60,938 nt of DNA, from NCBI GenBank assembly GCA_035552735.1, contig DASZKX010000008.1:1-60938 (forward strand). Reading direction: 5' to 3'. Position numbers and translations under genes: made by a program. Shown piece after piece: positions 1 through 56,105 of this stretch (its first letter is position 1; every line of letters starts with the position of its first letter). A model generated the notes under the pieces. The model did not search any database, had not been told where the DNA came from, and was given only the letters and a program-made list of their open reading frames with translations. Origin of the DNA: Xanthobacteraceae bacterium. GTDB taxonomy: Bacteria; Pseudomonadota; Alphaproteobacteria; Rhizobiales; Xanthobacteraceae.

Positions 1-1352
1 TCGCGGGCCTTGAGGCCGAGCACGCCGAGCATCGGCAGCATCCAGAACGGATTGATCAGGTTGGGCAGCGCCTCGGCGGCGTTGTAGATCTGCACCGCCC
101 AACCGAGATGCACTTTGAGATCATTGGCGGCCTGCATCACATAGGGGGCTTCGATCAGCCATTTGCCACCGCCCGACGGAATGAAGAAGCCGAGCACCGC
201 CGAGTAGAGGCCCATGACGATCGGGAACGTGCCGGTGCTCGTGAGGCTGACGAAGGCATGCGCCACCTGGTCGGCCACCGACTGGCCACCAAAGCCCTTG
301 GCGGTGGTCATCATGGTGGCGATGCCGCCATAGAGCGGGAACTGGATCAGGACTCCGGTCGTGGCCGGCACCGCCTTGGCGACCGCATTGAGAAAGCTGC
401 GCGGCCGCCAATGCAAGAGCGCGCCAAGCATCAGGAACATGAAGTTGTAGGTATTGAGATTCGAGATCGCCAGGATCGGATCCTTGGTGGCGAATTCCTC
501 CGCCAGCCAACGGCCCGCCAGCGCCACCACGATCAGGGTGAGGAGGGGGCTGTATTCCAGCCATTCGCCAGGACGTTGCGGCGGCGGAAGCCGGGCCGGC
601 GCGGCCTCCACGCTCTCGCCCATCATCTGCGCCGTCACCGCCTTGCCGCCCGAGGGCGACGACAGGAGGGCAAGCGCGATCGAGGCGACAAACAGAACCG
701 CGACGATCGTCAGGGACTGCCACAGGAAGATGGTTTGCGAGAACGGGATCACCCCGGTGATGTCGAGGAGCGGTTTCGGCAGGCTCGCCGGATTGGCTTG
801 CAGCTGCGCGGCCGACGAGCTCAGGCCCAGCGCCCAGGTGGCGCCGAGGCCGAGACAGCCGGCGGCGCCGGCGGCCCGATAATCCATGCGCAGATCGGTG
901 CGCCGCGCCAGGGCGCGCACCAACAGGCCGGAAAAGATCAGGCTCATGCCCCAGTTGAGGAGCGACGTCAGCATGCTGATTGCGGCCACGAATCCGACGG
1001 CGGAACGTCCGCTCCGCGGCACACCGGCGAGCGCATCGATAAGCTTGGCGGCCGGCGGCGAGGTTGCCACCACATAGCCCGAGATGACCACCATGGCCAT
1101 CTGCATGGTGAAGGTGATGAGGCTCCAGAAGCCGTCGCCGAAGGATTTCGCGACGCTGACCGGGGGCGCGCCGTTGAGCAGCGCCGCAGCCGCCACCACG
1201 GCGACCGCCAGCACCACGAACACGTAGGCGTCCGGGAACCAGCGCTCGGCCCAATTGGTGAAAGCGAGCCCAAGCCGCGCCAGAACGGTTTCGCCGGAAT
1301 TGTCGGCAGGACGGCCGCCGCCCGCGGTTGCCGTTTGCTCGATGGTCGTCAT
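1..1352 (-). CDS. atoE: Short-chain fatty acid transporter (AtoE family), C-terminus cut by the window edge
   Basis: Absent from the ORF track because the frame stays open to position 1. Manual reverse translation from ATG 1352..1350 gives MTTIEQTATAGGGRPADNSGETVLARLGLAFTNWAERWFPDAYVFVVLAV...FIPSGGGKWLIEAPYVMQAANDL...LINPFWMLPMLGVLGLKAR, a multi-TM AtoE-like sequence. Listed ORFs 108..1439(+) and 121..1380(-) are Arg/Gly/His-rich off-frame artefacts. Confidence 0.8.
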   Translation of the reverse strand, partial: MTTIEQTATAGGGRPADNSGETVLARLGLAFTNWAERWFPDAYVFVVLAVAVVAAAALLNGAPPVSVAKSFGDGFWSLITFTMQMAMVVISGYVVATSPPAAKLIDALAGVPRSGRSAVGFVAAISMLTSLLNWGMSLIFSGLLVRALARRTDLRMDYRAAGAAGCLGLGATWALGLSSSAAQLQANPASLPKPLLDITGVIPFSQTIFLWQSLTIVAVLFVASIALALLSSPSGGKAVTAQMMGESVEAAPARLPPPQRPGEWLEYSPLLTLIVVALAGRWLAEEFATKDPILAISNLNTYNFMFLMLGALLHWRPRSFLNAVAKAVPATTGVLIQFPLYGGIATMMTTAKGFGGQSVADQVAHAFVSLTSTGTFPIVMGLYSAVLGFFIPSGGGKWLIEAPYVMQAANDLKVHLGWAVQIYNAAEALPNLINPFWMLPMLGVLGLKAR

Positions 1353-4324: not shown

Positions 4325-5969
4325 AGACGCGCTCCTTGAACGGCTCGACCCCGACCCGCTCCACGGTTTCGAGAAAAATCTCGTCTGGACGCGCGCGCAG
4401 CTCCAGATAGGCCGAAACGATATCCTCGACCACATCCGCAACCTCGGCATACGGAACCGCGGGACCGATCAGGGTGCCGAGCCGGGCCCCCTCGTCGGCG
4501 CGACCGCCGATCGTCACCTGAAAGAACTCCTCGCCATTCTTCTCGACGCCGAGCAGACCGATATGCCCCACGTGATGGTGGCCGCAGGCATTGATGCAGC
4601 CGGAAATGTTGATGTGCAGGCGCCCGAGTTCGTGAGCGAGATCGAGATCGCGGAAGCGCCGGGTCAGCTCCTGGGCGATCGGAATCGAGCGCGTATTGGC
4701 GAGGCTGCAGTAATCGAGGCCCGGGCAGGAGATAATGTCGGAGACGAGCCCGACATTGGGGGTGGCGACGCCAGTGGCATCGAGCGCGCGCCAGAGCGCC
4801 ACCAGATCGCGCTGCGCCACATGGGGCAGCACAAGGTTCTGCTCGTGCCCGACCCGAATCTCGCCGAACGAATAGCGATCCGCCAGATCCGCGATCGCGT
4901 CCATTTGATCAGAAGTGGCGTCGCCGGGCGTGCCGCCTTCCGGCTTGAGCGAGAGGGTCACGATCGAATAGCCCGGCAGCTTGTGATTGCTGACCGAGTT
5001 GTCGACCCATTGGGAGAAGCGGCGATCGGCGGCGCGCGCCTGCGCCAACTGCGGGGGGCTGTCGTCCAGCGGCGCGTAGTCAGGGTAGCGAAAGCGGGTA
5101 GCGACCTCCGCAATGAGCTCGGGATCGAGCACAAGCGCGCCATCCTTGATGGATTGCCATTCGGTCTCGACCTCCTTGGCAAACGCGTCGGCGCCGAGCT
5201 CATGGACCAGAATCTTGATGCGCGCCTTGTAGATGTTGTCACGCCGTCCGAACTGATTGTAGACGCGCAGGATCGCCTCGACGTAGCTCAAGAGGTCGCG
5301 CTTGGGCAGGAATTGCTTGATGGTCTTGCCGATGAACGGCGTGCGCCCGAGCCCGCCGCCGACGATCACCTCGAAGCCGACCTCGCCGGCCTCGTTGCGA
5401 TGCATGTGCAGGCCGATGTCGTGCACCCGCACCGCCGCGCGGTCATGCGCGGATGCGGTCAGCGCGATCTTGAACTTGCGCGGCAGGAAGGAGAATTCCG
5501 GATGCAGGGTCGAATGCTGGCGCAGAATTTCCGCGCTGATGCGCGGATCCTCGATCTCGCCGGGCGCCACGCCCGCCCACTGATCGGTGGTGATGTTGCG
5601 CACGCAATTGCCGCTGGTCTGCATGCCGTGCAGCCCGGCGCGCGCGAGGTCGGCCATGACGTCAGGCAGATCCTTGAGCTTGATCCAGTGGAACTGGATG
5701 TTCTGCCGGGTGGTGAAATGGCCGTAGCCGCGGTCGTAGGCGCGCCCCACTTGCGCCAGCATGCGCAGCTGGGCGGACGACAGGGTCCCGTACGGAATGG
5801 CGATCCGCAACATATAGGCATGCAGCTGCAGATAGACGCCGTTCATGAGCCGCAGCGGCTTGAACTCCTCCTCGGTCAACTCCCCGGAGATGCGCCGCGC
5901 CACCTGGCCGCGGAACTCAGTCACCCGCTCGGCCACCAGGGTACGGTCGAATTCGTCGTAGACATACAT
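4311..5969 (-). CDS. cysI: Sulfite reductase hemoprotein (nitrite/sulfite reductase 4Fe-4S/siroheme family)
   Basis: 552 aa. Contains TTRQNIQFHWI, MQTSGNCVRNITT, PRKFKIA and SCPGLDYCSLANT...ISGCINACGHHHV cluster/siroheme motifs. Confidence 0.9.
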   Translation of the reverse strand: MYVYDEFDRTLVAERVTEFRGQVARRISGELTEEEFKPLRLMNGVYLQLHAYMLRIAIPYGTLSSAQLRMLAQVGRAYDRGYGHFTTRQNIQFHWIKLKDLPDVMADLARAGLHGMQTSGNCVRNITTDQWAGVAPGEIEDPRISAEILRQHSTLHPEFSFLPRKFKIALTASAHDRAAVRVHDIGLHMHRNEAGEVGFEVIVGGGLGRTPFIGKTIKQFLPKRDLLSYVEAILRVYNQFGRRDNIYKARIKILVHELGADAFAKEVETEWQSIKDGALVLDPELIAEVATRFRYPDYAPLDDSPPQLAQARAADRRFSQWVDNSVSNHKLPGYSIVTLSLKPEGGTPGDATSDQMDAIADLADRYSFGEIRVGHEQNLVLPHVAQRDLVALWRALDATGVATPNVGLVSDIISCPGLDYCSLANTRSIPIAQELTRRFRDLDLAHELGRLHINISGCINACGHHHVGHIGLLGVEKNGEEFFQVTIGGRADEGARLGTLIGPAVPYAEVADVVEDIVSAYLELRARPDEIFLETVERVGVEPFKERVYATR

Positions 5970-5972
5970 CGT

Positions 5973-6311
5973 TTACATTCCGGCGCTGACGGGCACGCCC
6001 GCGGTGGCGGGCAGCTCGATGGTGGGGCCCGCGAGCCTGATGCTTTCGCGCAGGTTTCCGGGTCGCACGCCGCCATCCTTATCAAGCTTCACCGGCGCCA
6101 CATAGGCACCCACCGCCCCGATATCGTCCGCAATCGCGCCCTCCAGTAATTCGGTGGCGGCCGGCGCCGTGGTGACCACCGCGGCGCGCGCAAAATCCGT
6201 GCTCCAGCTATGGTCGGCGGTGCGGTAGATCACCGCGCCGTCGCCCAGCCGGTTGGCGGTGATCAGAACCGGGCCCGTGATCTTGAGCTTCTTTTCCAAC
6301 GGCGAGGTCAT
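5973..6311 (-). CDS. DUF2849 protein (usually upstream of alphaproteobacterial cysI)
   Basis: 112 aa, KITGPVLITANRLGDGAVIYRT... Lies 3 nt upstream of cysI on the same strand. Confidence 0.75.
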   Translation of the reverse strand: MTSPLEKKLKITGPVLITANRLGDGAVIYRTADHSWSTDFARAAVVTTAPAATELLEGAIADDIGAVGAYVAPVKLDKDGGVRPGNLRESIRLAGPTIELPATAGVPVSAGM

Positions 6312-6588
6312 GCGTGACTATCCATCCTCATTGGCGCAACGGCTGGGGCGGATTGCACCCTCCACCGGAACGGAATACATAGCGCGGAAGCCGCCCGTTG
6401 ACTAGAATTATTTTCCGTATACAAAGAGCGCAAGGCCCTGAAATAGAAAAACATACTACTATGGAAGCGAAATCGCTTGAAACAGCGCAACTGCAAATCG
6501 CCCGAAAGCGAGATGGTTCTTTTCCCGATTCCGCGCTCCGACCGTTTCTTGGGGCGCAAGCCGGCCAAGGCGCCGGAGTGAGCCCCAT

Positions 6589-6648
6589 CAATCGTCCTAC
6601 GAATCGTCCTATGAATCGTCCTTTGGATCGCCCTATGGATCGTCTCAG
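6589..6648. repeat. 12-bp tandem repeat x5 overlapping the cysD start region
   Basis: caatcgtcctac / gaatcgtcctat / gaatcgtccttt / ggatcgccctat / ggatcgtctcag. Two units carry in-frame ATGs (6611 and 6635). Confidence 0.9.
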
Positions 6649-7429
6649 CGAGCTCGAAGCCCAGAGCATCTTCATCTTTCGGGAGGGCTTTGCCCGTCTC
6701 AAGCGTCTCGCCTTGCTGTGGTCGCTCGGCAAAGATTCCAACGTCATGATCTGGCTCGCCCGCAAGGCGTTTTTCGGGCGGGTGCCGTTTCCGGCGCTGC
6801 ACGTGGATACCGGCAAGAAGTTTCCGGAAATGTACGCCTTCCGGGATCGCTACGCGGTCGAGTGGAATCTCGATCTCCTGGTCGAGCCCTGTCCGCCGAT
6901 CGAGGCGGTTGATCCGACGCTGCCGCCGGCCGCCCGCTCGGCGGCGCGCAAGACCGAAGGATTGAAGCTCGCCCTGGCCAAATACGGATTCGACGGCCTG
7001 TTCGCCGGCATTCGCCGCGACGAGGAGGCGACCCGCGCCAAGGAACGGGTGTTCTCGCCGCGCGGGGTCGAGGGCGGCTGGGATGTCCGCGATCAGCCGC
7101 CGGAATTCTGGGATCACTTCAACGCCTCGCCGCCGCCGGGCGCGCATTTGCGCATTCACCCGATCCTGCATTGGACCGAGGCCGATATCTGGGCCTACAC
7201 GCGGCGCGAGGGCATCCCGATCATCCCGCTCTATCTGGCGCGCGACGGCAAGCGCTATCGCTCGCTCGGCGATGCCGACATCACCTCGCCGGTGGCGTCG
7301 CAGGCGAGCACCATCGACGAGATCATCACCGAGCTCGACGGCACCAAGGTGCCGGAGCGCTCGGGCCGCGCCATGGACCACGAGTCCGAGGATGCGTTCG
7401 AGCGCCTGCGCGTTTCCGGCTATCTGTAA
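6635..7429 (+). CDS. cysD: Sulfate adenylyltransferase subunit 2
   Basis: MDRLSELEAQSIFIFREGFA...LWSLGKDSNVM...HVDTGKKFPEMY... PAPS-reductase/ATP-PPase fold. I chose the start by analogy with canonical CysD N-termini. Alternatives are 6611, or 6398 as given in the track. Confidence 0.88.
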   Translation: MDRLSELEAQSIFIFREGFARLKRLALLWSLGKDSNVMIWLARKAFFGRVPFPALHVDTGKKFPEMYAFRDRYAVEWNLDLLVEPCPPIEAVDPTLPPAARSAARKTEGLKLALAKYGFDGLFAGIRRDEEATRAKERVFSPRGVEGGWDVRDQPPEFWDHFNASPPPGAHLRIHPILHWTEADIWAYTRREGIPIIPLYLARDGKRYRSLGDADITSPVASQASTIDEIITELDGTKVPERSGRAMDHESEDAFERLRVSGYL

Positions 7430-7435
7430 CCAGGC

Positions 7436-9391
7436 GTGCGTCCCCTGACCACATCGTCCGAGAGCTCCGAGAATTCCATGAACATTTTGGTCACCGAGCA
7501 GTTCGCCTCATCCGAGCCGGCGGCGGCGCCGGCCGGCAAACGCGCGCTGGTGCGCATCGTCATCGTCGGGCATGTGGACCACGGCAAATCGACCCTGATC
7601 GGACGGCTCCTGTACGAGACCGGCAGCCTGCCCGACGGCAAGCTCGAATCGCTCAAGGCCGTCAGCGCCCGCCGCGGCATGCCGTTCGAATGGTCGTTCC
7701 TTCTCGACGCGCTGCAGACCGAACGCGATCAAGGCATCACGCTCGACACCAGCCAGATCCGGTTTCGGACGCCGTCGCGCGATTTCGTGCTCATCGACGC
7801 ACCCGGCCACGCCGAGTTTCTGCGCAACATGATCACTGGCGCCGCCCAGGCCGATGCCGCGCTGCTCATCGTCGATGCGGCCGAAGGCGTGCGCGACCAG
7901 ACCCGCCGGCACGGCTATCTGCTGCACCTGCTCGGCGTGCGGCAGGTGGCGGTCGTCATCAACAAGATGGATCGCGTGAGCTTCGACGAGCAGAGATTCC
8001 GCGATATCGAGACCGAAATCTCCACCCATCTGGTCAATCTCGGGCTCACGCCGGTCGCCGTCATCCCGATCTCGGCGCGGGACGGCGATGGCGTGGCACG
8101 ACGCACCGACTCGATCGCCTGGTACCGCGGGCCGACCGTGGTCGAGACCCTCGACAGCTTCATGCCCGCCCGCCAGCCCGATGAGCTGGCGCTGCGGTTG
8201 CCGGTGCAGGCGGTCTACAAGTTCGATGATCGGCGCATCGTCGCGGGCCGCATCGAGACCGGCAGCATCGCGGTCGGCGACGAGATCGTGATCATGCCCT
8301 CCGGCAAGACCGCCCACGTCCGCTCGATCGAATCCTGGCCGGAGCCGGCGCTTGCGCCGCGCGCGGCCAGCGCCGGGCAATCCGTCGGCATCACGCTCGA
8401 CAGCGAGATCTTTCTCGACCGCGGCGACGTGGTCTCGACCGCCGCGGTTCGGCCCAAGGCCGCCCAGCGCTTGCGCGCGCGGGTGTTCTGGCTGCACGAA
8501 GAGCCGATCGAGGTCGGCACCACCCTCAATGTGAGGATCGGCACCGCCGAGGCCCGCGGCACCATCGCGGCGATCGAGAAAGCGGTCGATCCCGGAGCGC
8601 TGTCGACCACCGAGGCCAAGGCGGTGGCGCAGAACCATGTGGGCGAGATCGATATTGCGTTGTCGCGGCCGCTGGCCGTCGATCCCTACGCGGTGAACGC
8701 GCGCACCGGCCGCATCGTGCTGGACATGAAGGGTCGCATTTCCGGCGGCGGCCTAGTGCTCTCCCTCGATCCGCCCCCTCCCGTTCCCTCCGCCGCAAGC
8801 GGGGGCGGGCGGAGCGGAGGCGCGCGCTCGCCGCAAAGCGCAGCCCTCAAAACCGCCGTGTCGCCGCAAGAGCGCGCGGCGCGCTCGGGTCACGCCGGCG
8901 CGATCCTGTGGCTCACGGGCGCAGGCGGTTCCGGCGCATCGAAGCTGGCACGCGCCGTCGAGCGGCGGCTGTTCGATCGCGGTGGCGCGCCGATCGTGCT
9001 CGAGATCGATGCCTTGCGAAGCGGGCTCAATGCCGATCTCGGCGCCAGGCCGGCGGACCATACCGAGACCGTCCGACGCACCGCCGAGGTCGCGGCCCAT
9101 CTGGCGCGCAACGGATTCATCGTCATCGTGGCCGCCATCTCGCCCACCGCGGCCGGCCGCGCGCAGGCGCGCTCGATCGGCGGCAAGCACTTCTTTGAGG
9201 TTCATGTGGACGCGGCCGCCGCAGCCGCCGCATCCGATGCGGCCTACGAGGCGCCCGTCGCTCCGGATCTCAGGCTCGATACCCTCCGCTACGATCTCGA
9301 TACCAATTCGCTCCAGGTCGAGCAGTTGCTCGAGACCGCCGGCGTGATCGCAAGCGGCGATCGGCCCGCGGGCGGAGAGTTCGCGATTTGA
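7436..9391 (+). CDS. cysN: Sulfate adenylyltransferase subunit 1 (GTPase) fused to a degenerate APS-kinase-like C-terminal domain
   Basis: G-domain motifs [15 protein letters not shown] and NKMD. A Pro/Gly/Ser linker (aa 441-475) precedes a CysC-like domain. Codon 7436 is GTG; an alternative ATG lies at 7478 (MNILVTEQ). Confidence 0.9.
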
Positions 9392-23951: not shown

Positions 23952-24088
23952 CGCTCGCCCTTTTCGTGCCCGATATGCTGGCCCGCTTGATGACCTGCGG
24001 GACGGATCATGCTATACGCCCGGCGATCAATCAGCTTCGGCCCTCGATCCCAAAAACATTTCACCGTCTAACAGCTCAGGAGACGATA

Positions 24089-48146: not shown

Positions 48147-48623
48147 CTAGATCATCAGATACGCAATCCAGCGAGCACAGCTGACCACCGCAATCCAGCC
48201 GACCAGCGAAATCGCGCCGGCTAGCCTGGCGCGAAGCGGAATTGCCGCGGTGCGGTCCCACTGCGCGATGCCGGGATAGACGAACCGCCGGAACGCCAGC
48301 ATGTTGAGGGCGATCAGCGCCAGCACCGCGAACTTCATCTGGAACGCGACGTTCACCGAATAGGCGACGGCCTGGCTCATGAACAGGAGGATGCCGGTCG
48401 TCGCCGCCACCACGAACGCCCCCCAGGTCAGTGGGATCACGTCGCGATAGAGGTCGCTGACGGCAGAGCCGCGCGCGATGAGGCCGAGCAGGCGCAGATC
48501 CACGATGGCGATCATGCCGAACACGAAGGTGGTGGCGGTGACGTGAATCATCTCGAGCGCCGGGAACCAGCCGCGTGACTGCGAGATCATCATCGCGACC
48601 TCGCTGGATTCGATAAAGCCCAT
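48147..48623 (-). CDS. 4-TM membrane protein of unknown function (paralog B)
   Basis: ATG at 48623 preceded by AAGGAG; MGFIESSEV... Paralogous to the upstream gene. Confidence 0.7.
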   Translation of the reverse strand: MGFIESSEVAMMISQSRGWFPALEMIHVTATTFVFGMIAIVDLRLLGLIARGSAVSDLYRDVIPLTWGAFVVAATTGILLFMSQAVAYSVNVAFQMKFAVLALIALNMLAFRRFVYPGIAQWDRTAAIPLRARLAGAISLVGWIAVVSCARWIAYLMI

Positions 48624-48663
48624 GAGCTCCTTGATGGACAGCACCTTCGGTTCCCCCCTGCGC

Positions 48664-49188
48664 TCACCGCATCATCAGCAAGGTGATCCAGCGTCCACGC
48701 CCCGCGAGCGTCACCCCGACCCAGAGCACCAGCGTGAGGGCGGCGAGCATGTTGGCGAGCGCGCGCCGGCCCGGACTTGCGACCGTCGCCGAAGAGGCGT
48801 CCGTCGTTTCCCGGCCCGGCCGCAAGGCCAGCTGCAATGCCAGCGTCGCCGCGATGGCAAGCCCCATGACCACCATCTTCACCTGAAAGGTGACGTCGGT
48901 CAGCAGACGCCGCGGCGCATAGAGGATCAGCAGGATCCCGGTCACGGTCAGCAGGACCAGGCCGGCCCAGATCCAGGACTGGAAACGGCGCGTCCCGGCG
49001 ATTGACGCTTGCGATCGGGAGATGCCCCAGATGCGCATGTCGATCATGACCACAGCCGACAGGATGATTCCGTTGGCCAGGATGTGGATGATCTGCAGCC
49101 AGGGCACGAGCCAATTGAGCCGGCGCAGCGCCTGGGCGATGGGCAGGCTTGCCAGCCAGGAAGCGAGCTCAACCATGCCAAATCCCAT
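48664..49188 (-). CDS. 4-TM membrane protein of unknown function (paralog A)
   Basis: MGFGMVELASWLASLPIAQALRRLNWLVPWLQIIHILANG... Same length and topology as paralog B. Alternative start at 49176. Confidence 0.7.
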   Translation of the reverse strand: MGFGMVELASWLASLPIAQALRRLNWLVPWLQIIHILANGIILSAVVMIDMRIWGISRSQASIAGTRRFQSWIWAGLVLLTVTGILLILYAPRRLLTDVTFQVKMVVMGLAIAATLALQLALRPGRETTDASSATVASPGRRALANMLAALTLVLWVGVTLAGRGRWITLLMMR

Positions 49189-49259
49189 ACCTGCGGCGCG
49201 GGGCCTCGAGGCGGCCCGCACCGGCCCGTGACCGATCACGATCTCGACGCCGCGGGGTT

Positions 49260-50309
49260 TCAGGCGAGCGCGGCCTCCTGCGTCGCCGACCGCGGCTTTG
49301 CGTCCGTGGCTGGAGCCGGATCGCGCAATCCGAGGATGCGCCGGGCGTTGCTGTAGAACAGCTTCTCCTGGCTCTCGGTCGACAGGTCGATCTCCGCGAG
49401 CAACTTGAGCGCGGTCGCCGGATCCCAACACGGATAGTCGGTGCCGTACATGACGTTGTCGATGCCGAAATACTCGATCGCGAATTTCATGCCCGGCACG
49501 TGCGGCGAGACGGTGTCGGTGTACATGCGCTTGATGTAGGTGCTCATGGGCTGCGGCAGCAGCGCGGCCTTGGTGTTCTTGTCCATGCGGCCAGACTGGT
49601 AGGGCAGCGCTCCGCCGGTATGCGACATGACGATCTTGAGCTTGGGATGCCGCTCCATGATCCCCGATAGGATCAGCCGGGACGCGGCGGCGCTCACCTC
49701 GATGACGCGGCCGAGGCTCAGATGCAGCGCGCCGTTGTAGCCTTCGAGCAACTCCTCGAACACCGCGTCGGTCGGATGCAGGAACAGCGGCACGCCGAGC
49801 TCCTCGACCCGGTCATAGAACGGCTCGAGCCGCTCGTGATCGATGCGCGGGTCGCTGCCGACGCTGCCCGGCAGGTTGGCGCCCATCAGGCCGAGCTTGT
49901 TGATGGCGTGGTCCAGCACCTCGATGGCGATCCCGGTGTCCACCAACGGCACCGCGGCGCTGGCCCAGAGTCGGCCCGGATGCTTGCGTTGGGCGCCGGC
50001 CATCTCCTCGTTCCACATGAGCGCCACGTCGCGGCCCTCCGGCGGCGCCAGGTCCGAGAAGGCGACCGAGAGCGGCCCGATGGAGCAGACCACGTCCACC
50101 TGATGGCCGAGCCGGTCCATGTGCTCGAGCTGCTTGTCGAGATCGAACCACTCGGCCCAGCTGTTGACCGGTAGGCCACGGCCGGCACCGCGCTGATAGC
50201 TGTAGCCGCCACGGGCGTTGCGCGCCGCGCGCGGAAAGTCCTTGCGCTTGCAGAATTGCTCCAAAACCGACTTGGGCCACCAATGGAAATGGGAATCGAT
50301 AATGTGCAT
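49260..50309 (-). CDS. Amidohydrolase-2 family metal-dependent hydrolase
   Basis: MHIIDSHFHWW..., ...FLHP..., ...MSHTGG..., ...YGTDYP. Confidence 0.85.
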   Translation of the reverse strand: MHIIDSHFHWWPKSVLEQFCKRKDFPRAARNARGGYSYQRGAGRGLPVNSWAEWFDLDKQLEHMDRLGHQVDVVCSIGPLSVAFSDLAPPEGRDVALMWNEEMAGAQRKHPGRLWASAAVPLVDTGIAIEVLDHAINKLGLMGANLPGSVGSDPRIDHERLEPFYDRVEELGVPLFLHPTDAVFEELLEGYNGALHLSLGRVIEVSAAASRLILSGIMERHPKLKIVMSHTGGALPYQSGRMDKNTKAALLPQPMSTYIKRMYTDTVSPHVPGMKFAIEYFGIDNVMYGTDYPCWDPATALKLLAEIDLSTESQEKLFYSNARRILGLRDPAPATDAKPRSATQEAALA

Positions 50310-50495: not shown

Positions 50496-50744
50496 ATGAA
50501 GCGACCCATCTCGTTCGTCGGCTCATTCGTCATCTTGACGTGCGGCCTCGTGCTTTCGGCCGACGCCGCGAGCCGCAATCGAACGATCATCTTGGCCCAA
50601 GGTGCGCCGCCCGAAATCTGCACCGAGATCTATCAGCCGGTCTGCGGAACCAATCCGGCCGGGATGCGGGTCACCTATTCCAACGCCTGCTTTGCCCGCA
50701 TCGCCCAGGCCACCAAAGTAACTGCGGGCGAATGCGCGAAATGA
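50496..50744 (+). CDS. Secreted Kazal-like domain protein (82 aa)
   Basis: GAGGAG RBS; signal MKRPISFVGSFVILTCGLVLSADA; C-TEIYQ-PVCG-TNPAGMRV-TY-SNAC-...-C matches the Kazal core PVCG...TY.N.C. Confidence 0.75.
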   Translation: MKRPISFVGSFVILTCGLVLSADAASRNRTIILAQGAPPEICTEIYQPVCGTNPAGMRVTYSNACFARIAQATKVTAGECAK

Positions 50745-50798
50745 GGCCAAAAGCGCCCCTGGGCTAAGGCACTTTGGCTTAGCTGACGCAGAACAGGC

Positions 50799-50889
50799 GT
50801 CATCGCCGGGACATAAGGGCGCTTACGCATAGCCCACCAAGACGGGCGTAAACGCCCTCATGTCTTCGCGGGCTATGCCCGGCGATGAC
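50799..50889. repeat. REP element family B with interleaved inverted repeats
   Basis: Outer arms gtcatcgccggg / cccggcgatgac. Inner modules are ordered X-Y-rc(X)-rc(Y), where X = gacataagggcgcttacgc and Y = atagcccaccaagac. Confidence 0.7.
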
Positions 50890-50910
50890 ACGCAACTTGA
50901 TGCGATGCCC

Positions 50911-52008
50911 CTACCGCGCTGGCTCGATGGCGGCCGGGCGCATGGCCGGGGATGCCGGACGGGCGGCGCCCGAACCCGCCGCCGGGGCGGCCGCGGCCGG
51001 TGGACCCCGATCGGATCGTCCGATCTTCGCGTCCGGCCGCTCGACGCGGACCGGACCCACATCGGCCAGCGGATTGCGGCCGGCCTCGACCGCGGCGGGA
51101 TTCACGGCGCAACCGGGGTCGGGCGCCGGCAGAGCCGCGGTTTTCGACGGCAGTTTCGGCGCCGGCTTGGCGGCTTCGACCCGGGATGGCGCCCGGGCGG
51201 ATTGCGCGAAACCGCCCGGCTGACACGGATCCGCGAAGGCCTGCTGGGGTGGCCGTGCCGGCGCCAATTCGGGCATTGGGGCCGGCGTAAGAGCCGGGGC
51301 CGGCGTAAGAGCCGGGGCCGGCAAAAGAGCCGGGGCCGGTGCGAGAGGGAACGCGGGTGCCAGAGTCGGGGCTGGAGTCGGCGAAGGCTCCGTAATGATA
51401 TCGCCCAGCGACGGCGTCTCCTTGGGATACGTCGTCGTGGGTGCGGCGGCGCCCTGCGGGCCTAACTCCGCCGGCCGCCACAGCAGCGACCATGACAGCC
51501 CACCGGCCATGAGCATCACGGCGCAAGCCGCCGCCACTTGCGCGGGCCGCCGGCCGAGCCGACCGCCGGCGATGCGAGACCAGATACGGGGCTTTGATGC
51601 CGCCGACGCGCCGCCGGCGGGCGTCAGAACCTGCTCCAGCAGATGGGCGGGCGCTGCCAGCGGTGCCGGCTCGATGCCCTCGACGAAAGCCAGTGCCGAC
51701 TGCGCCTCGAGCCGCACGGCGCCGGATACCGCGGCCGCGTCCTGGAACGCGTGGCAGGGCGCAGCGCTGGCGGTGCCAGACAAGATCGCTGCCAGCTCGG
51801 CGGTGAGCCGGCCCGGGCTGTCGGCGAGTTCCGATTCGGCTGGTTCCGACGGCGAACCGGATCGCTGCGCCTGGATGTCGGACAGCGCCTGCGCGATGCG
51901 GCTCCCGGTCGCCGGCACGCCGGACGCCCGTCCCTGCGGATCGCCCTCGAACGGGCGCTCGCAGAGGGATTCGAGCAGGGCCGCGATCTCATTCTTATCC
52001 AACGGCAA
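50911..52008 (-). CDS. Single-pass membrane protein, putative anti-sigma factor (non-ZAS) with a Pro/Ala-rich periplasmic region
   Basis: Starts 16 nt after the sigma-like gene on the same strand. TM segment VAAACAVMLMAGGLSWSLLW. Contains an (APALTP)n repeat. Confidence 0.55.
   Translation of the reverse strand: MPLDKNEIAALLESLCERPFEGDPQGRASGVPATGSRIAQALSDIQAQRSGSPSEPAESELADSPGRLTAELAAILSGTASAAPCHAFQDAAAVSGAVRLEAQSALAFVEGIEPAPLAAPAHLLEQVLTPAGGASAASKPRIWSRIAGGRLGRRPAQVAAACAVMLMAGGLSWSLLWRPAELGPQGAAAPTTTYPKETPSLGDIITEPSPTPAPTLAPAFPLAPAPALLPAPALTPAPALTPAPMPELAPARPPQQAFADPCQPGGFAQSARAPSRVEAAKPAPKLPSKTAALPAPDPGCAVNPAAVEAGRNPLADVGPVRVERPDAKIGRSDRGPPAAAAPAAGSGAARPASPAMRPAAIEPAR
51278..51349. repeat. 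18-bp in-frame tandem repeat (about 3.5 copies) inside the anti-sigma-like CDS
   Basis: ggggccggcgtaagagcc x2, then ggggccggcaaaagagcc, then ggggccggtgcgagaggg. Encodes PAPALT/PAPALL units. Confidence 0.9.
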
Positions 52009-52024
52009 TCCTCCTGTCCTTCGA

Positions 52025-53125
52025 TTAGACGGACAGTCTCCACTTTTTCACCACGTCCTCGTCGCCGAGCTCGTCGCGCAGTCGGCGCTTGAGCCTCTGG
52101 GCGAGCTTGTGAACATCTTCGACCGGCAGGCAGAGAAGCCGCGCGATCTCGCGCGCGGGCGCGCCCGCGAGCGCCAATTGCATATATAGTCTTTCTCCGG
52201 CCGGAAGCCCGGGCAGCACCTGCTTGAGCGCCTCCAGCGCCTGCTCGAGGAAATGCGCAGCCTGACCGTCGACCAGATTGTCCTCCGGGGTCGGCACGCG
52301 AAAATCGTCCGAACCGACCGCCGGCGCGAAATCCTCGGCGGCCGAAAGCTCGACCGTATGGCCATCGCCGCGCGGCTCGGCGCAGTAGCCGGCCGGGAGT
52401 GCCTGACGGACCCGGACGATCGCCTGCGCGACCGCCGGCACCGTCGGCGGCGCCTCGCCGACACGCGTCAGATGAGCGAGCAGGAGCGTGGGCTCGGCAG
52501 CGAGCCGATCCCAGTAGATGAGCCGGAACACCGATTGATCGAGCACCGACAGACGCTGGATCGCGGCCGGAAGCCGGCGGCGCGGAATGATGGTGCGCAC
52601 GTAATCGATGACCAGATTCTCGATGGTGTGCAGCACGAAGCCCGACAGGCTGCCGCGTCCCGAATAGGCCCGCAGCCGCTGGAAATCGTTCCGCAGCAGG
52701 GCTTCGCAGACAACCTGATAGGCGTCATCGCGATTTTGGGCGTTGCCGGCGCCGGGCAATGCCCGTTCGATCATGCGCCGCATATCGTGCCCGAAGAACG
52801 CCTCGAACGCCGGCCAGCCGCGACCGGCATCGAGCACCAGCAAATTGATGGCGCGCTCCAACAAGAGATCGCGCACCACGAGCGCTACATAGACCCGCAC
52901 GCGCGCGCGTCCATCGTAATCCTTGAGCCGTGAAAATCCGTTCGCGCGCAGACCCGCCATGACCTCGCGGAAGGCCGTCTCGGCATCGGCTCCGCCGCGC
53001 GTCACGCGCACGCAGGCGGTCCAGGCCAGATCGGCGAGCGCGCGGACCAAATCCTCCGCCGCCCCGGGCGCTCCCCGCAGGGCGGCCGCCAGCAGCGCTT
53101 TGTCCGGATCAAAAGGTGCGGTCAC
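52025..53125 (-). CDS. Atypical sigma-70-family (ECF-like) protein, 366 aa
   Basis: GTG start. Sigma2-like DDAYQVVCEALLRNDFQRLRAYSGRGSLSGFVLHTIENLVIDYVRT. Sigma4-like LPAGERLYMQLALAGAPAREIARLLCLPVEDVHKLAQRLKRRLRDEL. Plus extra sigma2-like and sigma4-like segments. Confidence 0.7.
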   Translation of the reverse strand: MTAPFDPDKALLAAALRGAPGAAEDLVRALADLAWTACVRVTRGGADAETAFREVMAGLRANGFSRLKDYDGRARVRVYVALVVRDLLLERAINLLVLDAGRGWPAFEAFFGHDMRRMIERALPGAGNAQNRDDAYQVVCEALLRNDFQRLRAYSGRGSLSGFVLHTIENLVIDYVRTIIPRRRLPAAIQRLSVLDQSVFRLIYWDRLAAEPTLLLAHLTRVGEAPPTVPAVAQAIVRVRQALPAGYCAEPRGDGHTVELSAAEDFAPAVGSDDFRVPTPEDNLVDGQAAHFLEQALEALKQVLPGLPAGERLYMQLALAGAPAREIARLLCLPVEDVHKLAQRLKRRLRDELGDEDVVKKWRLSV

Positions 53126-53344
53126 GGATAACCTGTACGGGGCCCGATCGCGACAGTAACGGGCAACCGGCCGCAGATTACAAGTCTTTCCTGTTTTTTT
53201 CAGGACACCGCCGCCGAAATTTCCGGGCCTGTCCGTCTAACGGGTCTGCCGAACGACCGCGGACATGCGGCCGGACGACGGCAAGCCGTTACCGAAAGCG
53301 CCGCGGCGCGATGACGCGCGCTCAATCGCAATCAGGAGTGTCCG

Positions 53345-54391
53345 ATGACGACATGGAATCTATTGGCCGCCCTCTCGCTCTGCGTGGCCCAGCTCGCCGG
53401 CAGCGCCGCGAATGCCGAGCCGGGCGACGACTATCGCCTGTCCGGTCCGGCGGTGCACGAAAACCTCGCGATCTATTTCGTGCACGGCAAATCCCGCGGC
53501 GGCCCGGTGCCGCTGACCTTGGCCGAGGCGCTCGCCAAGAAGACCATCGAGGTGCGCGAGATCGGCCAGGTCAACGAGCTGCAGGTCGAGAACATCGGCA
53601 ACGAGGAGATCTTCATTCAAGCCGGCGATATCGTGAAAGGCGGGCAGCAAGACCGCGTGCTCAGCGTGAGCCTGGTGCTCAAGCCGCATTCGGGGCCGCT
53701 TGCGATTTCGTCGTTCTGTGTCGAGCAGGGCCGCTGGTCGGCGCGCGGCGGCGAGGACGTGCGCAAGTTCTCGAGCGCGAATGCGTCGCTGCCCTCGCGC
53801 ACCGCCAAGATCGAGATGGCCGGGGCGGCATTGCCGCAGATCGACGGCGCCGATGCGCAGAGCGTGGGCACGCGTCAGCGCGAGATTTGGAACAGCGTCA
53901 AGGAGATCCAGGGCAAGCTCACGAGCAATCTCGGCGCCCAAGTAGCGGCGGCGCCCTCGCGCACCAGCCTGCAGCTGGCGCTGGAGAACGGCGGGCTCGA
54001 GCGCGCCCAGGCGGACTACGTCAAGGCGCTGCTGCCGATCGGCGAAAAGGACAACGACATCGTCGGCTATATCTTCGCGGTCAACGGCAAGATCAACAGC
54101 GCCGACATCTATCCCTCGAACGGCCTGTTCCGGAAGATGTGGCCCAAGCTGTTGCGCGCGAGCGCGACCGAAGCGCTCACCGAGCGCGATGGCGCGGCTG
54201 CGCCGGCACCGCCGCCTTCGGAAGCGAGCGGCTTCCTGGCGAGCCTGGGCGAGGCGCGCAGCGTCGAGAAGGACGTGGGCTCGGGCGGCAGCGTCCAGGT
54301 GCGCGAGAGCGCCAAGACTTTATTCATGGAAGCAAAGCCGGCCGCGGCGCCGGCCAGCGCCTGGGTGCATCGCAACTATCTGGCCAGGTGA
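53345..54391 (+). CDS. Secreted ARPP-1/DUF6569-like protein
   Basis: Signal MTTWNLLAALSLCVAQLAGSAANA. ...LTLAEALAKKTIEVREIGQVNELQVENIGNEEIFIQAGDIVKGGQQDRVL...SSFCVEQGRW...VGYIFAVNGKINSADIY..NGLFRKMWPKLLRASATEAL matches my memory of that family. Confidence 0.7.
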   Translation: MTTWNLLAALSLCVAQLAGSAANAEPGDDYRLSGPAVHENLAIYFVHGKSRGGPVPLTLAEALAKKTIEVREIGQVNELQVENIGNEEIFIQAGDIVKGGQQDRVLSVSLVLKPHSGPLAISSFCVEQGRWSARGGEDVRKFSSANASLPSRTAKIEMAGAALPQIDGADAQSVGTRQREIWNSVKEIQGKLTSNLGAQVAAAPSRTSLQLALENGGLERAQADYVKALLPIGEKDNDIVGYIFAVNGKINSADIYPSNGLFRKMWPKLLRASATEALTERDGAAAPAPPPSEASGFLASLGEARSVEKDVGSGGSVQVRESAKTLFMEAKPAAAPASAWVHRNYLAR

Positions 54392-54451
54392 CGACGGGCC
54401 AGATGAAGCGGCGCCGCCGCGGGTCCCATCCCCCGCGGCGGCGTCGCGAGC

Positions 54452-54904
54452 TCAGCAGCGGCACATGGCGAACCGGCAGGGATAGAGCTTCATAGACCAG
54501 CTTGCTGAGCCGAAGCGGCTCAAATGGCGCTTCGCCCGCAAGGTCCCCGCGGCCGGCGGGACGATGGCGGATGCCAGAACGACTGCAAGCGCGACGCTGG
54601 CGAAGGTCATATCGAGTGCGTGGCGGAATTGGCCGGTATTGTAGCGGACAAGGTCTGCGACATGCGGGACCGCGACGTCGAGGCACCAACCAACCGCCAG
54701 GTAGCCGAGCCCGAGGAGACACAGAGCGATATGGCGCCGCAATGCGAACCGATATTCCGGCAACAGACCGGCGGTGAGAAACCCCGACGCGAAGGCGCCC
54801 GCCACGAGCAGCGTGCTGCCGCGGCGCCGCCATTCCCACCAACACAGGACCTTGAACTGACCTACTCCGCCTTGATATTGGCGGTGCGGATCACCTTGCC
54901 CCAC
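54452..54904 (-). CDS. Hypothetical 3-TM membrane protein
   Basis: Good GC3 coding pattern and three hydrophobic segments. The only ATG start overlaps the upstream Bug gene by 43 nt. Confidence 0.4.
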   Translation of the reverse strand: MGQGDPHRQYQGGVGQFKVLCWWEWRRRGSTLLVAGAFASGFLTAGLLPEYRFALRRHIALCLLGLGYLAVGWCLDVAVPHVADLVRYNTGQFRHALDMTFASVALAVVLASAIVPPAAGTLRAKRHLSRFGSASWSMKLYPCRFAMCRC

Positions 54905-55839
54905 TTCTCGGTTTCATCGGCGACGAGCTTGCCGAACTCGGCGGGGCTCATCGGCATCGGGACGCCGCCCAGATCGGCGAGCCGCGCCTTCAGCTTGGGA
55001 TCCGCGAGGCCGGCATTGATGTCCCGGTTGAGCCGCTCGACGATCTCGGGGGGCGTGCTCTTCGGTGCCCCGATGCCGTACCACTGGCTTGCCTCGTAGC
55101 CGGGCAGGAACTCGCCCACGGTCGGGATGTCGGGCAGCAGCTCCGAGCGCGTCGCACTGGTCACCGCGAGCGCGCGCAGCGTGCCGGCCCGCACATACGC
55201 GATGGTCGAGATGGTGGGCTCGAACATGACCTGCATCTGCCCGCCGAGCAGATCGATGAGGGCGGGCCCGCCGCCGCGATAGGCCACCGGAACCAGGTCC
55301 ACGCCGGCCATCATCTTGAACAGCTCGCCGCTGATATGCGGCGCGCTGCCGTTACCGGCCGTCGCCATATTGATCTTGCCGGCATTGGCCTTGGCATAGG
55401 CGATGAACTCGGGAACGGTCTTGGCCGGCAGGGACGGATTGACGACCATGACGTTGGGGGCGCGCATGAGGCCGGCGACCGGCGCGATGTCGCGGATGAA
55501 ATTGAAGCTGAGCTTGTCGTAGAGCGAGGCGTTGACCGCGTTCGCGCCGGTGGCCAGGAGGAGCGTGTAGCCGTCCGCCGGGGCGCGCACCACCGCCTCG
55601 GTGCCGATATTGCCGCCCACGCCGGTGCGGTTCTCGATGACGAACGACTGGCCGAGCCGTTCCGACAGAAATTGACCGATGAGGCGCGCCACGGTGTCGT
55701 TCGGGCCACCGGCCGCAAAGCCGACGATCAGATGCACCGGCCGCGCCGGATAGCTCTGCGCCCATGCGGCGCGCGCGAGAGCAGGCGACACGGCAGCGCC
55801 GGCCGCCAGACGAAGAAAACGACGGCGAAGAAGCTTCAT
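54862..55839 (-). CDS. Bug-family (TctC-like) substrate-binding protein
   Basis: MKLLRRRFLRLAAGAAVSPALARAAWAQSYPARPVHLIVGFAAGG... About 60% identical by eye to the Bug gene at 21945..22922. Confidence 0.9.
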   Translation of the reverse strand: MKLLRRRFLRLAAGAAVSPALARAAWAQSYPARPVHLIVGFAAGGPNDTVARLIGQFLSERLGQSFVIENRTGVGGNIGTEAVVRAPADGYTLLLATGANAVNASLYDKLSFNFIRDIAPVAGLMRAPNVMVVNPSLPAKTVPEFIAYAKANAGKINMATAGNGSAPHISGELFKMMAGVDLVPVAYRGGGPALIDLLGGQMQVMFEPTISTIAYVRAGTLRALAVTSATRSELLPDIPTVGEFLPGYEASQWYGIGAPKSTPPEIVERLNRDINAGLADPKLKARLADLGGVPMPMSPAEFGKLVADETEKWGKVIRTANIKAE

Positions 55840-56105
55840 GATGCCCTCCCTCAAATACGAGCGATATTCCTGCTCGAACAGGTAGGCACCTTTGTGGGCA
55901 CCCTTACTGCCGCTGCCCCAAGGCGCACGAAGCACTCTCCGTCGGCAACGAACGGGTAACTTACAACAGCCGCTCGGATATGCGGAAGGGCAGCCGAGGG
56001 CTCAAAAGAGCGATTTCTCTTCAGATTGAACAATAGCGCTAAATCGCTGAGTTGGGGCGTCGGTATCGTACCTATATTCAGGGACCAAGCAACGCGCCGG
56101 CGGGT

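Follow-up and report, generated by a model that had tools for sequence, protein, structure and literature searches.

The 60,938-nt stretch analysed here (positions 1 to 60,938 of contig DASZKX010000008.1 from a soil alphaproteobacterium of the Xanthobacteraceae, hereafter the window) contains a compact module of a sigma-70-family gene, the gene of a single-pass membrane protein directly downstream of it (here referred to as the partner), a divergent gene for a predicted secreted protein of the ARPP-1/DUF6569 family and a gene for a small Kazal-like protein. We found that one promoter-like motif stands both upstream of the ARPP-1 gene and in the last codons and stop of the sigma gene, and that this sigma 3' end is under strong synonymous-site constraint, i.e. 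constraint at the DNA level. Judging from the sequence, these genes probably act together in envelope signalling of the sigma/anti-sigma type, with a non-canonical sigma factor at the centre. The build of this sigma protein, the predicted promoter in its own stop region and ARPP-1 as a putative exported output are all unusual. The module genes are located as follows.

52025..53125, minus strand: sigma-70-family gene, 366 aa, GTG start
50911..52008, minus strand: partner gene, 365 aa, TTG start, 16 nt past the sigma stop (sigma stop at 52025, partner start at 52008)
53345..54391, plus strand: ARPP-1/DUF6569 gene, 348 aa, PF20208 match
50496..50744, plus strand: Kazal-like gene, 82 aa, Kazal_1 and Kazal_2 matches

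The divergent sigma and ARPP-1 genes are separated by 219 bp. A first-pass annotation of this DNA had placed five open reading frames (ORFs) in the region, and all of them were found exactly where it had put them; its observation is confirmed and its interpretation is supported in part.

A promoter-like motif and its copy in the 3' end of the sigma gene

The motif is bipartite, 25 nt long and of the form GAAAWW-N11-CCGTCTAA, and it is found upstream of ARPP-1 and at the sigma 3' end. For the scans it was represented by a position weight matrix (PWM) of 29 nt, built from 44 sites and used with a hit threshold of 14 bits. Exactly two hits of at least 14 bits are present in the window, each pointing toward a module gene, while merely 0.05 are expected in shuffled sequence. 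In random 300-nt pieces, the 99th percentile of the best PWM score is 3 bits. The two hits are the following.

52024..52052, minus strand: promoter-like motif GGTGAAAAAGTGGAGACTGTCCGTCTAAT, PWM 41.3 bits, the best score in the window
53213..53241, plus strand: promoter-like motif GCCGAAATTTCCGGGCCTGTCCGTCTAAC, PWM 32.3 bits, about 105 nt before the ARPP-1 start

In the GCCGAAATTTCCGGGCCTGTCCGTCTAAC site, the -35-like element is GAAATT (53216-53221) and the -10-like element is CCGTCTAA (53233-53240). We scanned the sigma profile against one genome per GTDB species and obtained 23 loci (loci of relatives are referred to by numbers with the prefix L). CCGTCTAA is invariant, in the same place and orientation, in all 20 orthologous intergenic regions, where the A-rich element precedes it and the whole is directed toward ARPP-1. 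The other copy, GGTGAAAAAGTGGAGACTGTCCGTCTAAT, spans the last eight sigma codons (V K K W R L S V) together with the TAA stop, the sigma 3' end being GTG AAA AAG TGG AGA CTG TCC GTC TAA, and lies 16 nt upstream of the partner start. Of the sigma genes that have the exact 8-mer, 21 of 21 show this 3'-end motif, relatives linked to nSTAND1 or trypsin genes included. The coding and the non-coding copies have both half-sites in common, and their spacing is equal.

Codon usage brings out the constraint on the sigma 3' end. The final codons CTG TCC GTC and the TAA stop are identical in 19 of 19 aligned sigma genes. In fact, the commonest codon averages 66% use over the 144 conserved amino-acid columns of these genes, and merely seven of the 144 columns show a single codon, three of which are the last three sigma codons. 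Moreover, the rare Lys codon AAA reaches 94% use in the motif vs 16% genome-wide, TCC accounts for 22% of Ser codons and GTC for 45% of Val codons genome-wide, and TAA, the stop of all 19 sigma genes, makes up 8 of the 33 stops among the long ORFs of the window. Relatives have extra motif copies 49-67 nt upstream of other neighbouring genes, which the copies face in every case. These copies stand before operons of small secreted Pro-rich or Kazal proteins (L010, L015, L018 and L030), before a divergent small secreted gene (L027) and before a TPR-trypsin gene (L029).

The sigma 3' end might alternatively be kept by selection on the protein tail KKWRLSV alone, with the ARPP-1 site being unrelated to it, for example the operator of another factor; the sigma gene would then hold no sigma-dependent promoter. 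W362, L364 and V366 do not vary in the protein, and a partner transcript starting from this motif would have an unusually short leader, both of which suit such an explanation. However, the synonymous positions (TCC, GTC and AAA) and the TAA stop are fixed as well, which protein-level selection leaves unexplained. The match of coding and non-coding copies in both half-sites and spacing speaks against it, as do the further copies in relatives, which always face the neighbouring genes behind them. We regard selection on the tail alone as very unlikely.

Taken together, the two sole window hits of a common motif and the constraint on one of them support the view that the sigma protein controls ARPP-1 and feeds back on the partner. 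The earlier proposal that the sigma protein controls the divergent ARPP-1 gene thus gains support from the shared promoter-like motif, as far as sequence can tell, and GGTGAAAAAGTGGAGACTGTCCGTCTAAT is the predicted sigma-dependent promoter of the partner gene.

The sigma gene itself is preceded by another motif.

53154..53185, minus strand: second motif CTTG(T/A)AATC-N13-CCGT(T/C)AC, about 30-60 nt before the sigma start

It is conserved in an alignment of the 100 nt upstream of 22 sigma genes, and its regular expression matches 53181..53156 in the window. Its spacing is about 3 nt wider than that of the first motif, and no PWM hit of at least 14 bits is present there. This second motif is likely the promoter of the sigma gene and of a different class, and the wider spacing suggests that it is read by another factor.

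A third CCGTCTAA in the window, at 24064-24071, was rejected: its spacing differs, its PWM score is below 14 bits, and about 1.4 such 8-mers are expected by chance. Simple scans of the module for a sigma-70 promoter or an intrinsic terminator gave nothing convincing.

A recurrent small secreted Pro/Gln-rich protein of about 75-85 aa was observed in L018 (4633-4900, plus strand), L027 (5603-5842, minus strand) and L030 (4686-4946, minus strand). Two of the three carry the motif PPIIVQTPQ, and the sigma motif precedes the gene in L018 and L027. This protein is absent from the window and may be an additional regulon member. Other small ORFs were also seen, namely a secreted Cys-rich one of about 97 aa between ARPP-1 and the sigma gene in L012 (1330-1930), and several secreted Cys-rich or Pro-rich ones around ARPP-1 in L030, some of them behind a sigma motif.

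The sigma protein and its partner

The window sigma protein can be divided into five parts.

Residues 8-98, 52832..53104, minus strand: N-terminal sigma-2-like domain (hhalign and NCBIfam PRK12524)
Residues 100-180, 52586..52828, minus strand: sigma-2 domain (Pfam and NCBIfam)
Residues 185-245, 52391..52573, minus strand: helical middle domain (AlphaFold2 model)
Residues 246-289, 52259..52390, minus strand: disordered linker (AlphaFold2, predicted local distance difference test score, pLDDT, below 50)
Residues 290-355, 52061..52258, minus strand: sigma-4 domain

Its assignment to the sigma-70 family in the first-pass annotation holds, since NCBIfam TIGR02937 (sigma70-ECF) scores 55.8 bits vs a cut-off of 42.9, and the Pfam family Sigma70_r2 (PF04542) is marginally above its cut-off with 25.0 bits vs 24 (residues 126-177). 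The Pfam family Sigma70_r4_2 (PF08281) stays below the cut-off, with 14.9 bits vs 25.7 (residues 298-349). The AlphaFold2 model (pLDDT 74) is all-helical. Within the protein, hhalign aligned residues 42-88 with residues 126-172 (P=85%, E=6.4e-6), and PRK12524, a model for sigma factors with extracytoplasmic function (ECF), aligns with its sigma-2 part to residues 8-91; both suggest that the N-terminal 100 residues or so are a second, degenerate sigma-2. This N-domain alone gave no Sigma70_r2 match against Pfam. As to whether the middle domain is sigma-3-like or sigma-4.1-like, its sole match was a weak half-match to r4_2 (E=0.086), and no Sigma70_r3 match was obtained for the protein in Pfam. 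The motifs of the DNA-melting region of sigma-2 (N170, D174 and R177) and the complete helix-turn-helix of sigma-4 are conserved. The best PDB sequence match is the sigma-4 of FliA (E=0.0016), and a Foldseek search of the model against the PDB returned weak whole-chain matches to group 1-3 sigmas (best E=2e-3).

An exhaustive profile search of 1.84 billion cluster representatives yielded 939 matches at E<=1e-3, including 128 at E<=1e-30. Most have 350-375 aa; in a variant, the middle region is lacking and the length is about 300 aa. With only 939 matches, the family appears to be small and well separated from the mainstream ECFs. According to precomputed Pfam annotation, most family members have no domain at all and most homologues have no sigma-4 hit.

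Entry into the ECF classification takes Pfam matches to sigma-2 and sigma-4 with at most 50 aa between them (PMC7826278). The window sigma does match Sigma70_r2, if marginally, while a sigma-4 match above the cut-off (PF04545 or PF08281) is lacking, and 120 aa lie between the two regions (residue 177 to residue 298). Falling outside on these two counts, it probably belongs to none of the characterised ECF groups, which agrees with the earlier view of the module as undescribed.

These features could also mean that the 366-aa protein is a degenerate sigma-like regulator or decoy and no working sigma factor, next to which ARPP-1 is a mere conserved neighbour. Region 2 barely above and region 4 below the Pfam cut-offs, the lack of precomputed domains in most of the family, the extra sigma-2-like domain, the long spacer and the weak Foldseek matches would all fit. 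The score for TIGR02937 argues against a decoy, however, and so do the conserved melting-region residues and helix-turn-helix, as well as a bipartite motif of promoter geometry that is present throughout the diversity of the family. A non-functional sigma is accordingly highly improbable in our view.

Promoters of FliA (sigma-28) have the consensus TAAA-N15-GCCGATAA. The module resembles FliA in the best PDB sequence match for the sigma-4 region, in top Foldseek matches that are group 1-3 sigmas and not ECFs, and in the form of the motif, with an A-rich -35 and a CCG..TAA -10. Unlike FliA, it shows weak matches only, no sigma-3 match in Pfam, a spacing about 2 nt shorter and no flagellar context.

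The partner consists of the following parts.

Residues 1-155, 51544..52008, minus strand: cytoplasmic N-domain, conserved
Residues about 157-179, 51472..51540, minus strand: transmembrane (TM) helix (hydropathy)
Residues 181-365, 50914..51468, minus strand: Pro/Ala-rich periplasmic tail, variable (composition)

It had been described as a single-pass, Pro/Ala-rich protein of non-ZAS type, and we likewise found one hydrophobic segment, a tail of 23% Pro and 25% Ala, and no HxxxCxxC motif. The partner gene is immediately downstream of the sigma gene in all loci, with a gap of 6-46 nt. Conservation is limited to the first 180 residues or so, and the tail varies. The protein has no Pfam or NCBIfam match, a profile of 15 partners found nothing in the PDB at E up to 10, and zf-HC2 matched weakly one of the 15 (E=0.0096). 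Compared with class I (ASD/ZAS) anti-sigma factors, the partner thus lacks the signature (zf-HC2/RskA-type, HxxxCxxC) but has the layout, being encoded directly downstream of the sigma gene and having a conserved N-domain and a variable C-terminal part. The N-domain motifs LAAxL(S/D)G and AL.F(V/L)(D/E)...AP..LV are also present in soluble partners of distant sigma relatives. Three C-terminal designs occur, namely TM plus Pro-rich tail, TM plus TonB_C and a soluble beta-rich domain. A constant N-domain together with a varying C-terminal part is the pattern expected of anti-sigma factors, and the partner is here considered a putative anti-sigma factor that would bind the sigma protein.

The closest known arrangement is that of ECF (group 4)/membrane anti-sigma pairs such as RpoE-RseA and SigW-RsiW (PMC7826278). 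The likeness has three sides. First, a sigma gene is followed by that of a single-pass membrane protein. Second, this membrane partner has a conserved cytoplasmic N-domain and a varying extracytoplasmic part. Third, a bipartite promoter-like motif with a CGTC-containing -10 stands upstream of neighbouring targets, and TIGR02937 is above its cut-off. In contrast to these pairs, the window sigma has a spacer of 120 aa where at most 50 aa are allowed and a sigma-4 below the Pfam cut-off, its family is separated from the bulk of ECFs, and the partner has neither ZAS nor another known signature. Moreover, the predicted consensus promoter here precedes the partner, inside the sigma coding sequence, and not the sigma gene.

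Conservation of the module and its exported proteins

The 23 sigma loci belong nearly all to metagenome-assembled genomes of Xanthobacteraceae or Bradyrhizobium, and one cultured strain, Bradyrhizobium erythrophlei CGMCC 1.13002, is among them. By tblastn, the divergent ARPP-1 gene and the downstream partner are present at every locus with enough sequence. The linkage of sigma, partner and ARPP-1 persists down to 61% sigma identity and 52-59% ARPP identity, while the flanking genes are common only to the closest group of loci and differ elsewhere. The trio is therefore syntenic well beyond close relatives, within unrelated flanks, and about 22 genomes of Xanthobacteraceae/Bradyrhizobium retain the four-gene core. 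The metagenomic locus L030 (63% sigma identity) has the same module genes in yet another order, with the Kazal gene directly downstream of ARPP-1. When ORFs around the sigma gene were clustered, only four conserved families emerged, namely ARPP-1, sigma, partner and Kazal-like, and a small secreted Pro-rich protein is additionally conserved in a subset of the loci. Members of the ARPP-linked clade inherit the module stably, in a chromosomal context, and not as a mobile element. A search of a plasmid collection with the module gave no match, and none of the four module proteins was matched by PADLOC.

ARPP-1 matches PF20208 over its full length (198.7 bits, E=1.8e-58; residues 30-343, model positions 2-294 of 297), which bears out the family assignment that the first-pass annotation had made. 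Residues 1-24 (53345..53416) look like a signal peptide by inspection, a feature that is kept in the orthologues. Cys125 (53717..53719), the sole Cys of the mature protein, is invariant in an alignment of 38 sequences, and so are Q92, Q102, Q178 and Q189. The AlphaFold2 model (pLDDT 66) has no fold match in the PDB (best E=0.18). The ARPP domain was defined by its absolutely conserved Cys and Gln, and its known contexts are ARG-centred conflict systems and pairs with HIRAN, WYL or a secreted PF01522 deacetylase, the latter with signal peptides on both proteins (PMC9503650). It had been supposed that ARPP-1/DUF6569 proteins are only cytoplasmic. This did not stand, because signal-peptide-bearing ARPP is already described beside the secreted deacetylase, and export of ARPP is thus not new. 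The window protein resembles these neighbourhoods in its full-length PF20208 match, the conserved Cys and a signal-peptide-like N-terminus, as in the deacetylase-paired form. Unlike them, it lacks ARG, HIRAN, WYL and PF01522, none of which was seen in L001 and L002 among genes called up to about 8 kb away, and its associates are a sigma/partner pair and a Kazal-like protein, a context that is absent from PMC9503650. The arrangement accordingly lies outside the described ARPP contexts, as had been suspected. Our literature search found no paper naming DUF6569 or PF20208. Following a proposal in PMC9503650, the substrate of the invariant Cys may be a sugar-containing component of the envelope.

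The 5' leader of ARPP-1 folds no better than its shuffles (z=0.49), and Rfam returned nothing relevant for it. At the other end of the gene, a sub-threshold Rfam match to the small RNA CcsR1 (54372-54449, plus strand; 25.5 bits vs a gathering threshold of 65.3, E=0.004) begins in the last 20 nt or so of the gene and ends just past its stop; it is probably a chance match or a terminator-like element.

Kazal domains typically have six cysteines that form three disulfides. The Kazal-like protein exceeds both Pfam cut-offs (Kazal_1, PF00050, 28.1 bits vs 21; Kazal_2, PF07648, 25.2 vs 22.8), so the earlier call stands. Its mature part has four cysteines (42, 50, 65 and 80) instead of six, with the core CTE.Y.PVCG...YSN.C.A....G.C, and the homologues are alike in this. 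Its N-terminus also looks like a signal peptide by inspection. The gene is linked to the module in the majority of genomes, and in 15 loci, in three arrangements, a Kazal homologue lies no more than 2 kb from the gene of the partner or of ARPP-1. Of the two flanking ORFs that had been put with the group, the Kazal-like one (plus strand) is consequently a conserved member, whereas the following one is not kept with it.

54452..54904, minus strand: ORF with three TM segments (3-TM ORF)

We rejected this ORF as a module member, since the closest loci alone keep it and since its match in L001 falls in the interior of a gene. Its counterpart in L001 lies inside a 619-aa COX15/CtaA plus Aldolase_II gene, and the window ORF, which has a weak NCBIfam match to heme A synthase, looks like a COX15/CtaA-like membrane protein of which a remnant or fragment is left. 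At its 5' end, the ORF overlaps with the 3' end of a TctC-family gene (54862-55935). Also flanking the module are two membrane-protein ORFs (48147-49431 and 49260-50309, both minus strand) and an Amidohydro_2 gene. They are kept only in L001, L003, L004, L006, L007 and L021, i.e. in the closest relatives, and thus mark the boundary of the module and are not members of it.

In L004, a close relative with 88% sigma identity, ARPP-1 and the sigma gene are separated by an insertion of about 2.2 kb that looks foreign (5600-7950) and contains two ORFs of 273 and 168 aa that belong to no obvious family. A copy of the sigma-proximal promoter region is found on either side of this insertion (5738 and 7947), and the ARPP-1 gene of this locus has a frameshifted C-terminus.

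Distant relatives, the proposed circuit and its meaning

The most distant of the genome hits is L024, and sigma relatives with 37-64% identity to its sigma retain both partner and stop-codon motif, yet their neighbourhoods differ. nSTAND1 NTPases adjoin them in L024, L026, L027, L031 and L032, one of these being fused to a Lon-like protease domain. In L029 the neighbours are a TPR-trypsin gene, DUF4384 and a caspase, in L033 they are caspases with Sel1 repeats, and in P0282 a TonB_C-bearing partner is found beside Mla genes. Transposases, resolvase or toxin-antitoxin genes are often nearby. The C-terminus of the partner is soluble and beta-rich in the nSTAND1-linked loci, and it is a TM plus Pro-rich tail in the ARPP- and trypsin-linked ones. 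Such a pattern of constant regulator and variable module is typical of conflict systems. ECF sigma factors beside caspase conflict modules were noted earlier (PMC8195603). These caspase/EACC2-coupled sigmas are like the present family in that its distant members stand beside caspase, trypsin or STAND-NTPase modules; unlike them, the window locus has no NTPase or peptidase, and its predicted outputs are exported proteins. In L024, a second copy of the sigma-3'-end motif (712-740, minus strand) is identical to that of L026, which suggests that this genome has a paralogous sigma gene of the family, about 8 kb away from the first one.

The main alternative starts from these neighbourhoods and takes the module as an envelope-directed member of a conflict-system family, in which sigma and partner are the constant sensor-regulator core and the neighbours are exchangeable effectors. 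Secreted ARPP-1 enzyme and Kazal-type protease inhibitor would then be directed against a predator, a competitor's proteases or phage. The wiring would be the same as in the signalling unit that we prefer, and only the biological role differs, with conflict or defence in place of housekeeping envelope stress. In favour of it are the distant relatives, which keep partner and stop-codon motif beside nSTAND1 NTPases (five loci), caspases with Sel1 or TPR, TPR-trypsin and mobile or toxin-antitoxin genes, further the definition of ARPP in ARG-centred conflict systems (PMC9503650) and the precedent of ECF sigma-caspase coupling (PMC8195603). However, PADLOC matched none of the four proteins, the ARPP-linked module is stable and chromosomal with no plasmid match and the same flanks across the close group, no toxin-like effector is present, and the window Kazal gene has no motif. 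For the window locus we find a conflict role possible but rather doubtful.

For the envelope signalling unit that we favour, the following circuit is proposed. The sigma gene would be transcribed from its own upstream promoter of a different class. The conserved cytoplasmic N-domain of the partner would hold the sigma protein at the membrane, and an extracytoplasmic cue acting on the disordered Pro/Ala-rich tail would free it, for which proteolysis is one candidate; this much we infer about their binding and the nature of the signal. The free sigma, as the presumed reader of the motif, would direct RNA polymerase to GAAAWW-N11-CCGTCTAA promoters, of which one copy would drive secreted ARPP-1 and the second, at the very end of the sigma gene (eight codons plus stop), would drive the partner gene. 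Activation of the sigma would in this way re-make its inhibitor, i.e. exert negative feedback, and the sigma would not positively autoregulate. Further copies in many relatives would drive small secreted Pro-rich, Cys-rich and Kazal-like proteins. With motif copies before such genes, the output would be a set of exported proteins.

Several points weigh against this circuit. Since the sigma gene has a different motif upstream of it, there is no indication that the sigma protein regulates its own gene. A promoter for the partner at the sigma stop would give the transcript a leader of no more than about 8-17 nt, and textbook ECF promoters have a wider spacing between the A-rich element and CGTC. 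The partner is without detectable similarity to a known anti-sigma domain in Pfam and in the PDB profile search. The Kazal gene of the window has no upstream sigma motif, its best score being -12 bits, which is at null level. The loci share phylogeny, so the counts of invariant sites are not independent. Finally, another factor could read the GAAAWW-N11-CCGTCTAA motif.

A broader and more tentative proposal, which we would put at somewhat less than even, is that these proteins represent an unclassified sigma family of the build sigma-2'-sigma-2-[middle domain]-sigma-4. It would carry its own promoter in its last codons and stop, with hard-wired feedback on the partner, and would serve as a constant core for interchangeable conflict or envelope modules (nSTAND1, caspases, trypsin, secreted ARPP-1 plus Kazal).

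If true, this would be the first case of ARPP-1 as the regulated, exported output of a dedicated sigma factor. The ARPP-1/DUF6569 family would gain a regulatory handle, with a dedicated sigma, a defined promoter and a culturable host, B. erythrophlei CGMCC 1.13002. The sigma family lies outside the filters of the current ECF classification and would thus not be captured by it. A coding sequence and stop that double as the promoter of the next gene would be relevant to overlapping codes and to the design of sigma/anti-sigma feedback. Moreover, the nSTAND1, caspase and trypsin neighbourhoods suggest a transcriptional arm of bacterial conflict systems.

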